Below are positions 38 through 4,059 of a stretch of DNA of 64,000 nucleotides, piece by piece. The notes under the pieces were generated by a model that made no database searches, was not told the DNA's origin, and was given only the letters and a program-made list of their open reading frames with translations. The translations under genes were made by a program, and so were the position numbers. Numbering within the stretch: the stretch's first letter is position 1; every line of letters starts with the position of its first letter. The stretch is from an uncultured Actinomycetes bacterium (GTDB lineage: Bacteria; Actinomycetota; Thermoleophilia; UBA2241), in contig CAVWIH010000011.1 in NCBI GenBank assembly GCA_963755025.1, positions 32,001-96,000 on the forward strand, in the 5' to 3' direction.

Positions 38-90
38 TTAACGCCGCGCCTCACGTACGTAACGCGAACTTAAGAATCGGCCGCTATCGT
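38..90 (+). promoter_or_regulatory. Putative promoter with phased TTAA-like boxes and -10 TATCGT, upstream of candidate sRNA copy 1
   Basis: TTAAC(38), CTCAC(50), GTAAC(59), TTAAG(70) at roughly 10-11 bp spacing, then CGGCCGC and TATCGT (85-90); same architecture recurs at 4005-4059 on the minus strand. Confidence 0.5.
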
Positions 91-95
91 TGTGT

Positions 96-160
96 CACCC
101 TCCTTACAAGGGCAGCCCCAAGCCCTTGGCGAGCCCCGCCCCCAGCGGGGCTCGCGCCAG
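96..160 (+). ncRNA. Candidate small RNA, two hairpins with C-rich loops (6C-like), copy 1
   Basis: CAAGGGC-agccccaa-GCCCTTG (107-128) directly followed by GCGAGCCCCGC-cccca-GCGGGGCTCGC (129-155); paralogous copy at 3930-3998 (-). Confidence 0.55.
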
Positions 161-194
161 TTCCGGGTCGCTTTCGGCGAACGGGTCGCCCCGG

Positions 195-274
195 GCGCCG
201 CCTCGGGCACACACCCCGGCGCCGCCTCGAGCACACCCCAGCGCCGCCTCGAGCACACACCCCAGCGCCGCCTC
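195..274. repeat. Intergenic tandem repeat, ~3.5 x 22-24 bp (GCGCCGCCTCG(G/A)GCACAC(AC)CCC(A/G))
   Basis: Units start at 195, 219, 241, 265. Confidence 0.85.
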
Positions 275-413
275 AAAGGCACCTCCCGACACCGCCGCGG
301 ACCGCCGCTCACGCGCCACGCACGGCTTTCTCGCGCGGTGCTCATCTGCTCCCTGTACAAGCGGTGGGCACGGTGCGGCGGCGGCGGCACACGACCGCGA
401 AAGGCGATTCAGC

Positions 414-891
414 GTGGGCAAGACTCGGGTCCTCTTTCTCTGCGTGGGCAACACGGCTCGCAGCCAGATGGCCGAGGCGTTTCTGCGAGCCTACGGCGGG
501 GACCGGTACGAGGCGCGCAGCGCCGGCCTCCAGCCGCAGGAGATCGAGCCTCTGGCCATCGTGGTCATGCAGGAGGCCGGCTTCGACATGCGCAGCCACT
601 TTCCGAAGGGCCTGAGAGCTCCCCCGCAGGCTCCGCTTCGACTACGTGATCACGGTCTGCAACCGCGCCGAGCGCCGGTACGCGAGGCTGCCGGGCATGG
701 GCGAACATCTCAGCTGGCCGTTTGCCGACCCCGCCGCCTGCACGGGAAGTGAAGCGGAGCGTCTGGCCGGCTATCGCAGGGTCCGCGACGGCATCGACCT
801 GTTCATCCGCGAGTGGCTCGGGGAGCGCGACGCGAGACCGTCGGCAGCCTCACCTCAAGCTCGCCGCCACGACACGCGGCGCTCACCATAA
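414..891 (+). CDS. arsC: Arsenate reductase ArsC / LMW-PTPase family (frameshift near 620)
   Basis: [18 protein letters not shown]...SAG in one frame, continuing as FDYVITVC...WPFADP...YRRVRDGI in ORF 646..891. Confidence 0.8.
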
Positions 892-964
892 CGTCTCATG
901 ATGAGCTCGGCATGCCGCATGGTGCGATGCGCGCTCCACGACCGAAAGAAGGCGGGTGGCTGCG

Positions 965-1379
965 ATGACGACAGAGCTCTCCCAAGGTCCGGTCTCGAGC
1001 GTCGAAGTGGAGGTCGCCTGGCTCCGGCAGCCAAAGCTCCCGTTCGAGGTCGGCGTCGTCACCGTGTCGGAGCGCACCTCGCTCGTCGTTCTGCAGGGTG
1101 AGGTCGACGGCAGGACGGTGCCGCTCGTGCGCGATGCCGTAGTGGGCGCCCTCGATACGGGCGCCAAGGCGCTCGTGATCGACCTCAGCGCGGTATCGTC
1201 GATCGACAGCCTGGGGCTCGGCGTGATCGTCATGGCCGCCCGGAACCTGGGCCTGGGCGCGGTCGCCGTGGTCCTGCCGTACCGCGGGCTGGTGCGTATC
1301 TTCCGCCTCTGCGGCCTCGATCGCCTGCTCGAAGATCTACCAGACGCGCGAGCTCGCCCTGCGCGGCGTGCTGGGGTGA
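965..1379 (+). CDS. STAS-domain anti-sigma factor antagonist (frameshift near 1333)
   Basis: LQGEVD...LVIDLSAVSSIDSLGLGVIV...IFRLCGLDRLL; typical C-terminus IYQTRELAL in shifted frame, stop at 1377-1379. Confidence 0.8.
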
Positions 1380-1398
1380 GACGCCGGGCGAGAGCCCG

Positions 1399-2926
1399 TC
1401 AAGGCACGGGTACGCACGAGGCCGCCAGAGCGAGCATCGTGGTGTTCGAGAGTTGCTCGTCGAGGGTGTTCGAGACCCAGTAGGCCACGCCGGCGGAGCG
1501 CCAGGCGACCATGCGCAAACGGTCGCCGTCGTAGTACAGCGAGCAGAGGCGCCCGCCGACCGTCGCGGTCGAGTCGGGGCTCGCCAGGATCGGGGCCGCC
1601 GGCCAGGCGATGGCCTGCACATCCCAGGAACCGCCCTGGGGCGTCGTGCCCACCACGACCGCCGCCTTGACCGCGCCCGAGGGTGTCGACACGGTGTACG
1701 AACGAAACTCGTCGTATCCCGCGCCGGCGGGCAGGCTCGCCGGCAGAGAGAGGGGCAAGCCGCAGCGGCGCTGCAGCGCCCGCCACTTCGGCCACGTGGC
1801 GGAGCGAGTCGGTGACGACCGGCTTGGAACCGGACGCCGCCGTCGAGGGTGACGCGGACGGGCTCGCTGCGCTCGTCGGCGCCGAGGCGGTCGTCGCCGC
1901 GCCGGCCTTTACCCCGGCCGCCGCTGTGCGAGGCGTCGCCCACTGGGGGTGCAGAAACCGGCGCACCGCCGCGCGCACCTGACCCCGGGTCGCCACGACG
2001 TAGTCGATGCCGTCGATCATCGGCGCGGAGCCGTAGACGTGGGTCTGATAGACGCGGGCGTTGTCGAGCCGCAGCGCCAGCTTGAGCAGCCCGTACGACT
2101 TGCCCAGGCTCGAGATGTCGGAGGTCACGTTGTGCGAGACGATGCCCATCACGGCCAGGAACCGCGGCAGACTGGAGAGCCTGGCCGACGTCATGAGCTG
2201 CCGCTTCATCTCGCGCAGAAAGATCTCCTGGCGCACGATGCGCGTGAAGTCGCCGCTCTGGTCGTGACGGAACCGCACCCACGACAGCGCGGCGGCGCCG
2301 CTCAAGCGCTGGTAGCCCGGCTGTATGTTGATCGATGCGTAGTCGGTCACCGCGGTGTCGTTGTAGTAGCGGCGGTCGATCATGAGGTAGGCGCCGCCGA
2401 GCTTGTTGACGACCTGCTTGAAGCCGTCGAAGTCGATGTCGACGAAGTCGTTGATGGGAATGCCCAGCAACCGCTTGGTGACCCGTAACGAGAGCGCGGC
2501 GCCGCCATAGGCGTAGGCGGCGTTTATCTTGGTGAGTCCGTAGCCGGGGATCTCGACGCGCAGGTCGCGCGGCACGGAGAGCAGGGAGATGCTGTCCGTC
2601 TGCGGGTCGAGGCGCACGACCATCAGCGTGTCGGAGCGCGCGCCCAGGCTGAGGTCGCCGGCGCGCCGGTCGCTGCCCAGGACGAGGATGTTGATCGGCT
2701 TTCCCGGCCGGCTGTGCGCGAGCTGGGGCCGGACCGCCGCGACCTCCTGCGGGTCGTTGCGCGCGACCTGGCCGGTGGTGCGCTGCAGCCAGGCCGCGGC
2801 CACGCCGGCCGTCAGGCCCGCGCACACCGCGAGCGCCACGACCGTCCACACGGCCACGACCAGCCAGCGCGGCCTGCCCGGCAGGCGCTTCGCCTTGACG
2901 ATGACATAGCGGGTTGTGGTGGGCAC
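1399..2926 (-). CDS. LCP (LytR-CpsA-Psr) family cell-wall glycopolymer ligase (frameshift near 1770)
   Basis: N-terminal TM, NILVLGSD, RSDTLMVVRLDP, LSVPRDL, KINAAY, VRFRH..DF.RI.RQ; C-terminal part in ORF 1399..1758. Confidence 0.88.
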
Positions 2927-3097
2927 GGACCGATCCTGAACGCTTCAGCCTGGCGCCCCGCGGATAGGCGGGCCGTGCTCACATTCTGGCGTCACACGAT
3001 GAGGGATCGGTTAGCCGCACGTTGGCCTTTCGCGCACGGATCGGCGCGACACCGGGTCCGCGAGGGGAACGTCGCCCGCTCGTGGCCCCTCAACGCG

Positions 3098-3670
3098 TCA
3101 GACCGGACCCGCCCCGTCGCCGGCGCCGACGTAGTAGCCGACGGTCTGCACCGACCAGCGCCCCTTGGGGTCGATCGCCCTGACCTCGGCGGCCAGCTCG
3201 CTCAGGCGTTCCTCGAAGCGCCGGTAGGCGGCCGCGTCGAAGGCGCTGCGCCGCTCGTCGAAGAGCGCCTGCCAGGCGCGAGAGTCGATGGGTGCGTAGC
3301 TCTTCGGGTAGCACAGCCCCAGGATGGCGGTCGCGACCCCGAGGCCCACGCCGGGCAGTAAGCCGAGGGTCGCGAGCCGTGCGCGCAGTTCGAAGCCGGC
3401 ATCCTTGTCTTTGAAGGCGAAGGCCATCTGCGTGACGCGCTTGATGCGTTTCTCGGAGCTGGACTCGAGCAGATGCGCGGCCCGTCCGTACTGGTCGCCG
3501 AGCTTCCAACGACAGACCGCGAGGAACTCGTCGCACGACAGATAGAAGGGCACGCGCTTGTCGCGAGCGCGAGCCAGGCGGGCCTTGAGCCGCTCGGCCT
3601 CGACGAGGCCGGGGACTTCTGTGTGCTTTGCGGCGAGGCGACGATCCTTCAGGGTGGCGGCGGTGATCAT
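3098..3670 (-). CDS. Hypothetical protein with helix-hairpin-helix (HhH-GPD glycosylase-like) motif
   Basis: LGLLPGVGLGVATAIL...P..YAPIDSR; ATG at 3670. Confidence 0.6.
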   Translation of the reverse strand: MITAATLKDRRLAAKHTEVPGLVEAERLKARLARARDKRVPFYLSCDEFLAVCRWKLGDQYGRAAHLLESSSEKRIKRVTQMAFAFKDKDAGFELRARLATLGLLPGVGLGVATAILGLCYPKSYAPIDSRAWQALFDERRSAFDAAAYRRFEERLSELAAEVRAIDPKGRWSVQTVGYYVGAGDGAGPV

Positions 3671-3797
3671 GGGGCGGACCCTCCCGGCTCGGTCGTTGAG
3701 CGTGACTGCCCTGGATGCTGCCAAGGCCGTGCTCTCTACGTCGTACACCTCAGGGACGACGATGACAAGGCTCAGGCTGAGGGTCACCGGAAGGGGC

Positions 3798-3860
3798 AGC
3801 CCGCCGCCCCGGGGTGAGACGGGGCGGCGGGCTCAGCAGATCCCTGGCTCAGGGGGATCT
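3798..3860 (-). other. Two adjacent hairpins (7-bp and perfect 14-bp stems); terminator or further small RNA
   Basis: AGCCCGCCGCCCCG/CGGGGCGGCGGGCT (3798-3833) and AGATCCC/GGGATCT (3838-3860). Confidence 0.5.
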
Positions 3861-3929
3861 CTGAATCTCAACGTACCCCGCCCGTTTGAGCGTGTCGTGA
3901 GGGTCGGGTGAGTCTTCGCTTCAGACCCT

Positions 3930-3998
3930 ACAAACGCGACGAGCCCCGCGGGGGGGCGGAGCTCGTCGGCAGGGCTTGGGGTTGCCCTTGAGGGGGGT
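3930..3998 (-). ncRNA. Candidate small RNA, two hairpins with C-rich loops (6C-like), copy 2
   Basis: Minus strand: CAAGGGC-aaccccaa-GCCCT then CGACGAGCTCCGC-cccccc-GCGGGGCTCGTCG; 19/20 identity to copy 1 over CAAGGGCA(G/A)CCCCAAGCCCT. Confidence 0.55.
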
Positions 3999-4004
3999 CG
4001 ATAG

Positions 4005-4059
4005 AGAGTATCGGCCGCCCTGATTAAGTGCATGTTAAGGCCGCCTTAAGCGCGATTAA
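4005..4059 (-). promoter_or_regulatory. Putative promoter with four phased TTAA boxes and -10 TACTCT, upstream of candidate sRNA copy 2
   Basis: TTAA at 4024, 4035, 4046, 4056 (spacing 11/11/10) in a ~70% GC background; CGGCCGA-TACTCT on minus strand. Confidence 0.55.

Follow-up and report, generated by a model that had tools for sequence, protein, structure and literature searches.

Candidate small RNA genes with C-rich loops and a conserved promoter-like box array in an uncultured family of the Thermoleophilia

Introduction

Repeated C-rich or CCUCC-type motifs that cover G-rich ribosome-binding sites are a feature of several groups of bacterial small RNAs (sRNAs), among them LhrC1-5 of Listeria, RsaE/RoxS of the Firmicutes and the CcsR 'cuckoo' RNAs of the Alphaproteobacteria. 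These are in part sibling families, their motifs lie both in loops and in single-stranded stretches, and two-component systems control LhrC (LisRK) and RsaE/RoxS (SrrAB/ResDE). The closest described system in the actinobacteria is the 6C RNA (Rfam family RF01066; B11 in mycobacteria), which is about 70 nt in length, has two adjacent hairpins and owes its name to a run of about six or more C residues in each of the two loops. Here we describe an element of similar design that is present in two convergent copies near the start of a 64 000-nt window of DNA from an uncultured Actinomycetes bacterium of the class Thermoleophilia (GenBank assembly GCA_963755025.1, contig CAVWIH010000011.1, positions 32,001 to 96,000; all coordinates below are those of this window unless a contig or locus is named). 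Sequence comparison suggests that the element represents a shortened, multi-copy variant of the 6C-type sRNA design within an uncultured actinobacterial family, with a conserved promoter array of its own.

In Mycobacterium tuberculosis, the C-rich loops of 6C are described as binding many mRNAs at G-rich stretches of the 5′ untranslated region (UTR), independently of a chaperone, in a genome that is depleted of G-runs (PMC6486639). In Corynebacterium glutamicum, 6C is reported to be tied to the SOS response and driven by SigA/SigB (PMC5014011), and extra 6C genes within one genome, up to three and at unlinked positions, are reported for mycobacteria (PMC9569102). The 15 best-ranked of 302 literature matches contained no link between 6C and the Thermoleophilia, and the 6C papers found concerned only Mycobacterium, Corynebacterium and Streptomyces. 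sRNA regulation is almost unexplored in soil actinobacteria of the Thermoleophilia type, which are abundant but rarely cultured. The principle of a multi-copy sRNA with C-rich loops is already known; a conserved family of such sRNAs with its own promoter array would appear to be new.

Results and discussion

Two paralogous copies in the window

Copy 1 (predicted sRNA at 97-160, plus strand) and copy 2 (3930-4000, minus strand) are paralogues and lie where a first-pass annotation of the window, made from the sequence alone, had located them. They share a 20-mer, CAAGGGCARCCCCAAGCCCT, which has its only two occurrences of the window at 107-126 (+) and 3971-3990 (-), as compared to 0.02 expected from shuffles; the copies differ at one of its 20 positions, in agreement with the 19/20 identity claimed at the outset. 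Pairwise alignment of the two copies likewise reproduced the common order of blocks, namely TAAC, ACTTAA, GGCCG, TA, C-tract, hairpin 1 and hairpin 2. On the strands proposed, both copies fold into two hairpins and are far more stable than shuffled controls (copy 1, 95-160, -39.0 kcal/mol, z -5.6; copy 2, 3998-3930, -36.4 kcal/mol, z -5.9); the folds of the opposite strands stand out less (z -1.4 and -3.4, respectively).

Copy 1 begins with the 5′ tract CACCCUCCUU, for which the geometry predicts a start near A97, and continues with hairpin 1 (107-128, loop AGCCCCAA) and hairpin 2 (129-155, loop CCCCA), after which there is no U-tract. In copy 2, the 5′ tract CGACCCCCCUC (4000-3990) is followed by hairpin 1 (3988-3971, loop AACCCCAA), hairpin 2 with its C-run loop (3970-3934) and a GUUUGU tail, and the U-G replacement described for its second stem (GAGCUCCG...CGGGGCUC) is present. 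The flanking genes are unrelated, as had been stated, with a split low-molecular-weight (LMW) phosphatase/ArsC-type gene downstream of copy 1 and LigA, with HhH and BRCT domains, upstream of copy 2. Some claims required adjustment. The CCTCCTT motif reported at 99-105 (+) is indeed there, although the anti-Shine-Dalgarno CCUCC is limited to the subtype formed by copies 1 and 3. The reading as sRNA genes was supported, but with a predicted length of about 65-70 nt in place of ~60 nt. Finally, the two copies are siblings, but make up half of a set of four rather than the whole of it.

Copy number and distribution

The assembly of this genome comprises 3.37 Mb in 39 contigs and is 84 % complete. 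Two further copies (copies 3 and 4), on contigs C9 and C21, came to light in a motif search of the whole assembly. All four were used to build a covariance model (R1), which finds exactly these four in their own genome, with scores of 81.6 bits for copy 1 and 83.7 bits for copy 2. With all filters off, a whole-genome nhmmer search recovered the four at E values of 2e-17 to 6e-12 (copy 1, 5.8e-12; copy 2, 5.4e-15), and the next match stood at E>4.

R1 was then applied to 61 related genomes, with 82 first-look candidates scored per genome, such that misses mean little. At E<=0.01, all 11 genomes examined from the same genus had a match, as did 24 of 36 from the same GTDB family, which included other genera; the number of matches ranged from 1 to 10 per genome. 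The weakest matches (L029-L036) were dropped, as inspection found them to be plain terminators or coding sequence. A second covariance model built from 41 curated members (R2) found clear homologues inside that GTDB family only, in 13 of 25 genomes; other families of the class gave R2 matches of 26-34 bits, which on inspection looked like ordinary terminators, two of them directly after tRNA genes. An exact-pattern scan of a public species-genome collection gave 87 matches. Among the 80 loci listed, 17 carry the full element, all from metagenome-assembled genomes labelled Actinomycetes, Actinomycetota or Thermoleophilia, and the remaining 63 were chance matches, mostly in coding sequence.

These distributions bear upon the possibility, raised at the outset, that the unit is a mobile or repetitive element of the repetitive extragenic palindrome (REP) or miniature inverted-repeat transposable element (MITE) type. 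Such an element would account for the presence of several copies per genome (10 matches in one genome), for a 7-8-nt inverted repeat that flanks the unit and for the position of copy 1 at the edge of an inserted block beside a tRNA gene, but there are only four copies in 3.37 Mb, and their neighbours (ligA, tRNA-Thr and msrB) are conserved, with orthologous positions across genera. In addition, the conserved unit reaches ~60 nt upstream of the inverted repeat, into the promoter-like array, and no target-site duplications were noticed, with no search aimed at them. Low copy number and orthologous positions together rule out a REP/MITE-type repeat, a reading that we consider extremely improbable, and the comparison supports a conserved, low-copy, gene-like unit.

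Anatomy and covariation of the unit

The unit was described from an alignment of 45 hits. Its parts are, in order, four phased TTAA-type boxes with a -10-like hexamer, a 5′ C-tract, a short hairpin 1 and a GC-rich hairpin 2. The 5′ single-stranded tract reads (U)AUCGACCCCCCUC, with CACCCUCC(CCC) as the alternative in the subtype that includes copies 1 and 3. Hairpin 1 is AAGGGC-RACCCCAA-GCCCUU, with a stem of 5-7 bp and a near-invariant loop of 8 nt, hairpin 2 has a GC-rich stem of 11-13 bp and the loop (U/C)CCCCC(C), and most members end in a CCCUUUU tail. More distant genera have an extra small hairpin (UCGCU-GNNA-AGCGA) ahead of the C-tract, seen as GGCUCCUUUCGCUG..AAGCGA between promoter and C-tract in L022-L025, L152, L153, L164, L166 and L167, and in two genera the C-rich hairpin 1 is replaced by a hairpin of GNRA type (L026, L168, L171).

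Homologues in relatives do covary, as would be expected of the structured RNA first proposed. Across the 45 sequences, 94.9 % of cells were paired, compared to 86.6 % in shuffles, and none of 500 shuffles attained any of five covariation measures, although these shuffle figures overstate the significance because the sequences are relatives. Changes on both sides were seen in 13 of 17 pairs (10 of 11 in helix 2 and 3 of 6 in helix 1), and sliding the partner columns by 1-3 reduced pairing to 24-53 %. The alignment therefore supports compensatory changes that keep both helices. Among 34 genus-level sequences, the C residues of the 5′ tract, the CCCCAA of loop 1 and the C-run of loop 2 are invariant or at least 90 % conserved, whilst the bases of the stems vary. 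Conserved single strands amid varying stems are, at the level of sequence, the pattern expected of pairing seeds.

Promoter-like box array and comparison with pstS

Upstream of copy 1 are the boxes CTTAAC (37-42), CCTCAC (49-54), CGTAAC (58-63) and CTTAAG (69-74) on the plus strand, ~11 bp apart, and the geometry points to TATCGT (85-90), 10 nt past the last box, as a -10-like hexamer. Copy 2 has ATTAAT (4060-4055), CTTAAG (4050-4045), CTTAAC (4039-4034) and CTTAAT (4028-4023) on the minus strand, 10-11 bp apart, the first of which contains the ligA stop codon (4058-4056); a putative -10-like hexamer, GATACT (4007-4012), again follows 10 nt past the last box, with a predicted start near 4002-3998. 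Nearly all genus-level members have four such boxes, (C)TTAA(C/G/T/A) or GTAAC, spaced by 10-11 bp. A gap of 10 nt separates the last box from the hexamer, which is GATACT in most and TATCGT or TATCTT in the CACCCUCC subtype, and which lies ~7 nt before the conserved 5′ end of the RNA. The proximal pair [TG]TAAC-N6-TTAAN was present in 33 of the 45 hits, in 27 of them together with a -10-like hexamer at 9-11 nt, and all four boxes in 21. A consensus scan found no TTGACA-like -35 element at 16-18 bp and did not pick up the -10-like hexamer of either window copy. Two other assignments were rejected by eye, as their spacing and conservation were unfit across the copies: a sigma-28/WhiG promoter (GCCGATA-like -10) and an extracytoplasmic function (ECF) sigma factor promoter (GAAC...CGTT).

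The boxes stand out in a genome of 70.7 % G+C with only 270 TTAA in total. The sRNA promoters account for four of the 14 sites at which the pattern [GTC]TAAC-N5-6-[GTC]TAAN occurs in this genome, where ~1.4 sites would be expected. Because several of the other sites adjoin PstS- and PstC-like genes, pstS promoters were examined in this genome (contig C28; L157, L185) and in relatives (L186-L209). CTAAC boxes were found at all 24 family loci, as CTAAC-N6-CTAAC at 15, with a TAnnnT hexamer 9-11 nt after a box at 20 and TTAA boxes at none. In the pho box bound by PhoB of Escherichia coli, 11-bp direct repeats take the place of the -35 element, 10 bp from the -10. The CTAAC-N6-CTAAC repeats, ending 10 nt before TAnnnT, look like the pho box of this bacterial family. 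As a separate observation, one intergenic CTAAC array between two PstS-like genes, made up of three exact 11-bp repeats, is oriented away from the gene downstream.

The sRNA arrays resemble Pho-box promoters in their direct repeats of 11-bp period, with the proximal repeat 10 bp before the -10 and in place of a -35 element, but differ in the boxes themselves, which are TTAA(C/G/T/A) or GTAAC at the sRNA genes and CTAAC at pstS. Membership of the sRNAs in the Pho regulon was rejected, given that TTAA boxes occur at 0 of 24 pstS loci and that CTAAC was seen in a single sRNA-promoter box among the 45 listed (L150). As the box sequences differ, a separate regulator of the same class is likelier than the Pho regulator itself, and the geometry suggests that the sRNA genes are probably switched on by a regulator of the OmpR/PhoB type. 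The earlier suggestion of co-regulated siblings is well supported, since the upstream box array and the -10-like hexamer are common to paralogues whose genomic surroundings are unrelated. An array as clean and as conserved as this could lead to the regulator and its regulon, and the CTAAC boxes at pstS would provide an internal control for binding specificity against the TTAA boxes.

Phased TTAA boxes were also seen at three further sites in this genome. One, at C14:94530-94575 (L156 2531-2575), lies between an Rrf2 regulator gene and a TPR-protein gene and has a GATAGA -10-like hexamer 8 nt past its third box, TTACA. The other two are at C30:9323 (L159) and C30:24822 (L160), the contexts being a sigma-70-family gene with a class A penicillin-binding protein gene, and yajC with a DUF998 gene. 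These three sites may belong to the same regulon as the sRNAs.

Relation to 6C RNA and to other C-rich sRNAs

The first-pass annotation had left a choice between a divergent 6C family and a new one. In an Rfam scan (all 4,227 families, E<=10), RF01066 was the only family to match the element, below its gathering score of 47. Copy 3 scored 39.3 bits, copy 4 31.9 bits and copy 2 26.0 bits (E 2.3), and copy 1 gave no RF01066 match at E<=10. The three matching copies outrank every other RF01066 site in their own genome, the next of which scored 22.0 bits, and the alignment covers both hairpins (model positions 1-75). RF01066 exceeded its cut-off in none of 61 genomes of the class, with 64 first-look candidates scored per genome. 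A phylum-wide search, with 29 candidates scored per genome, lost even the sub-threshold matches of this genome and is thus uninformative on absence. In the reverse comparison, R1 matched canonical 6C at its exact position in seven loci, which come from two other families of the phylum, but with 19-30 bits and mainly via hairpin 2; this is no proof of homology with 6C because generic GC-rich terminators reach 26-34 bits on R2. No flanking genes were held in common with these seven loci or with one sub-threshold locus.

The element shares with 6C its actinobacterial host, its size and its two adjacent hairpins with C-rich loops, as well as a second hairpin with a stem and tail of the GACGAGCCCCG...CGGGGCUCGUCCCUUUU type and a GACCCC motif in the first C-rich element. 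By analogy, pairing to G-rich mRNA sites is likely for the element too. Copies 3 and 4 have the CCCUU tail that is a trait of 6C, whilst copy 2 has a weak form of it and copy 1 lacks it. Differences lie in hairpin 1, which has 5-7 bp as opposed to 12 in 6C, and in its loop, RACCCCAA, with four Cs in nearly all members; loop 2 has 5-7 Cs, and a third run of six sits in the single-stranded 5′ tract, which the element has in addition. The promoter also differs, with phased TTAA boxes here and a reported dependence on SigA/SigB for the 6C of C. glutamicum (PMC5014011). The extra 6C copies of mycobacteria are a further parallel, in that several paralogous sRNA genes with C-rich loops occur in one genome, but as reported those pass as regular 6C, with suggested horizontal transfer and some on plasmids (PMC9569102), whereas the paralogues described here occupy conserved chromosomal loci across a bacterial family and have a specific promoter array in common. 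Common descent with 6C is plausible on these comparisons. The element would take the C-rich-loop design of 6C type into a deep branch of the phylum, as a shortened version missed by the Rfam threshold.

LhrC, RsaE and CcsR belong to other phyla and have no sequence relation to the element, and no Rfam model besides 6C matched it. Another family of the class has, in three genomes that belong to a single genus (L175, L176, L180), a conserved element of ~60 nt in which CAGCACCUCCUCCCCAGAAG is followed by a terminator hairpin with the loop GUCCCCAG; this looks like a different small RNA of anti-Shine-Dalgarno type.

Proposed function and alternative readings

We consider it probable that the elements are genes for trans-acting small regulatory RNAs of about 65-70 nt, each with a predicted promoter and hairpin terminator of its own. 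Our confidence in specific targets is lower than in the sRNA reading as a whole. As many as three C-rich motifs would be exposed as single strands in the RNA: the 5′ tract, which is GACCCCCCUC or, in one subtype, CACCCUCC, the loop RACCCCAA of hairpin 1 and the loop (U/C)CCCCC of hairpin 2. These would pair with rare G-rich stretches of mRNA, chiefly Shine-Dalgarno regions of the AGGGGGG type. Pairing of the seeds would most likely reduce translation without a chaperone, by analogy with mycobacterial 6C. A response regulator of the OmpR/PhoB type would switch on all paralogues together, binding the four direct TTAA(C) boxes, at ~11 bp spacing, that stand in for the -35 element.

G6 runs number 787 in this genome compared to ~13,155 expected from composition, and are thus about 17-fold under-represented. 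Since a plausible start codon follows at a distance of 2-15 nt in 53 of the 237 RGGGGGG sites, G6 runs appear to serve largely as strong ribosome-binding sites, which are exact complements of the 5′ tract. Eleven genes were picked by hand from these 53 sites, of which ten were assigned a Pfam family and one was not. They showed no single theme, encoding two family-5 solute-binding proteins, a sedolisin-type protease, BNR and Ig-like repeat proteins, an SPFH protein, BirA, IlvN, a cysteine dioxygenase and a GyrI-like protein.

Several points weigh against the sRNA reading, in addition to the caveats given above for the shuffles and for the 6C scores. The genes with G6 sites are a pool of candidate targets only and not evidence of targeting. 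The consensus scan showed no sigma-70-type promoter and no T-rich terminator at either window copy. Helix 1 varies little, hence its support from covariation is thinner, and the covariation of helix 2 is what any terminator hairpin would give, which means that it cannot alone tell an sRNA from a terminator. Furthermore, a conserved G-run just past the U-tract complements the 5′ C-tract and could mask the seed if it were transcribed.

In an alternative reading, the elements are cis-acting modules of 3′ ends, forming a terminator and 3′-UTR for ligA and a bidirectional terminator in common with the convergent msrB, and have no trans role. Most of the covariation falls in the terminator-like helix 2, the array of copy 2 begins inside the ligA stop codon with no other terminator between ligA and the element, and only 17 nt lie between the end of the msrB-type copy and the stop codon of msrB, which is on the opposite strand. 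A conserved loop of 8 nt and a promoter-like array upstream are, however, more than a bare terminator requires, and the full unit, with box array, near-invariant hairpin 1 and C-tracts, recurs beside unrelated genes at copies 1 and 3. We regard a purely cis-acting role as unlikely.

The G-run would allow a different structure for the RNA. If transcription were to continue ~10 nt past the U-tract, GGGG(G)UCG could pair with the 5′ CGACCCC(C) and close a three-way junction that exposes two loops only, as in a protein-binding or sponge RNA or in a switch that masks the seed depending on termination. Comparison of the first 14 nt with the 21 nt from the end of the U-tract found a perfect complement of at least 6 nt in 18 of 41 members, with each of the three synteny classes represented, compared to 3.9 % of 20,000 random genome windows, although orthologous loci are not independent observations. 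Copy 3 has a variant pair (CCUCCCC at the 5′ end and GGGGAGG downstream), and an extended copy 4 folds with the closing helix at -42.6 kcal/mol, as against -34.5 kcal/mol for the centroid without it. Conversely, 23 of 41 members have a weak complement or none, among them both window copies (5 and 4 nt) and six of seven members from distant genera. MAFFT did not bring the G-runs of the 3′-extended sequences into register for a column-wise test of covariation, and with intrinsic termination the transcript would normally end short of the G-run. A longer, closed RNA, including its masking role, seems to us quite doubtful. In copy 2, the G-run takes the weak form GGGUC (3924-3928, minus strand), just after the tail; other G-run sites are at 165-170 of the window and at L005 1571-1586 and L006 1448-1463, with their homologues.

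Returning to trans-acting sRNAs, the parts could be joined into a lineage-specific circuit in which a two-component regulator reads the TTAA boxes and fires 2-4 siblings, the genes with G6 sites are silenced and a read-through G-run masks the 5′ seed, which could thus act only if termination is precise. As a whole this is a speculative scheme, and we would not expect all of it to hold. Were it true, the silenced set in this genome would include peptide-binding proteins, secreted proteases or repeat proteins, BirA and IlvN.

Genomic neighbours and the inserted block

Synteny classes were derived using tblastn with the flanking proteins of this genome, and genes were named from Pfam. In the ligA class, to which copy 2 belongs, the RNA gene lies directly downstream of ligA at 17 loci, distant genera included, and at 13 of these it is directly followed by tRNA-Thr(TGT) on the same strand. 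In the msrB class (13 loci), to which copy 4 belongs, the RNA gene is convergent with msrB and has an Orn/Lys/Arg-decarboxylase-family gene on its other side. The CACCCUCC subtype (copies 1 and 3) was seen only in this genome and one other, with differing neighbours; copies 1 and 3 adjoin HAD, LMWPc and hypothetical genes. The covariance model, together with two syntenic anchors (ligA-sRNA-tRNA-Thr and msrB), enables annotation of the sRNA family.

In the window, ligA (NAD-dependent DNA ligase; Pfam DNA_ligase_aden, OB, ZBD, HHH_2 and BRCT) occupies 4056-6200 of the minus strand, its start being approximate, and copy 2 is directly downstream of it on the same strand. In this genome, the tRNA-Thr(TGT) gene falls shortly before the window begins, some 200 nt ahead of copy 1, and copy 2 is 4 kb away from it, on the same strand. 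Comparison with relatives showed that copy 2 and the tRNA gene are parted, in this genome only, by a block of 3.8 kb (161-3923), which can also be described as holding copy 1 in inverted orientation. Because the block stands between the ancestral ligA-linked copy and tRNA-Thr, the two copies now face each other within 4 kb, and the comparison indicates that the convergent layout of copies 1 and 2 is not a functional pairing.

The block contains the split LMWPc gene of LMW-phosphatase/ArsC type (414-891), which is broken by a frameshift near 615-646, with the LMWPc match confined to its N-terminal half (414-614), a STAS gene (965-1378), an LCP-family gene (1337-2926, minus strand) and an open reading frame of 190 aa (3098-3670, minus strand). 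In the Rfam scan of the whole window, the only matches above gathering scores were two tRNAs. A 24-nt tandem repeat of 3.4 copies (195-274) lies between copy 1 and the phosphatase gene, and a second 24-nt tandem repeat, of 3-4 copies (4073-4175), is inside the 3′ end of ligA, where it encodes a repetitive Gly/Ala-rich tail.

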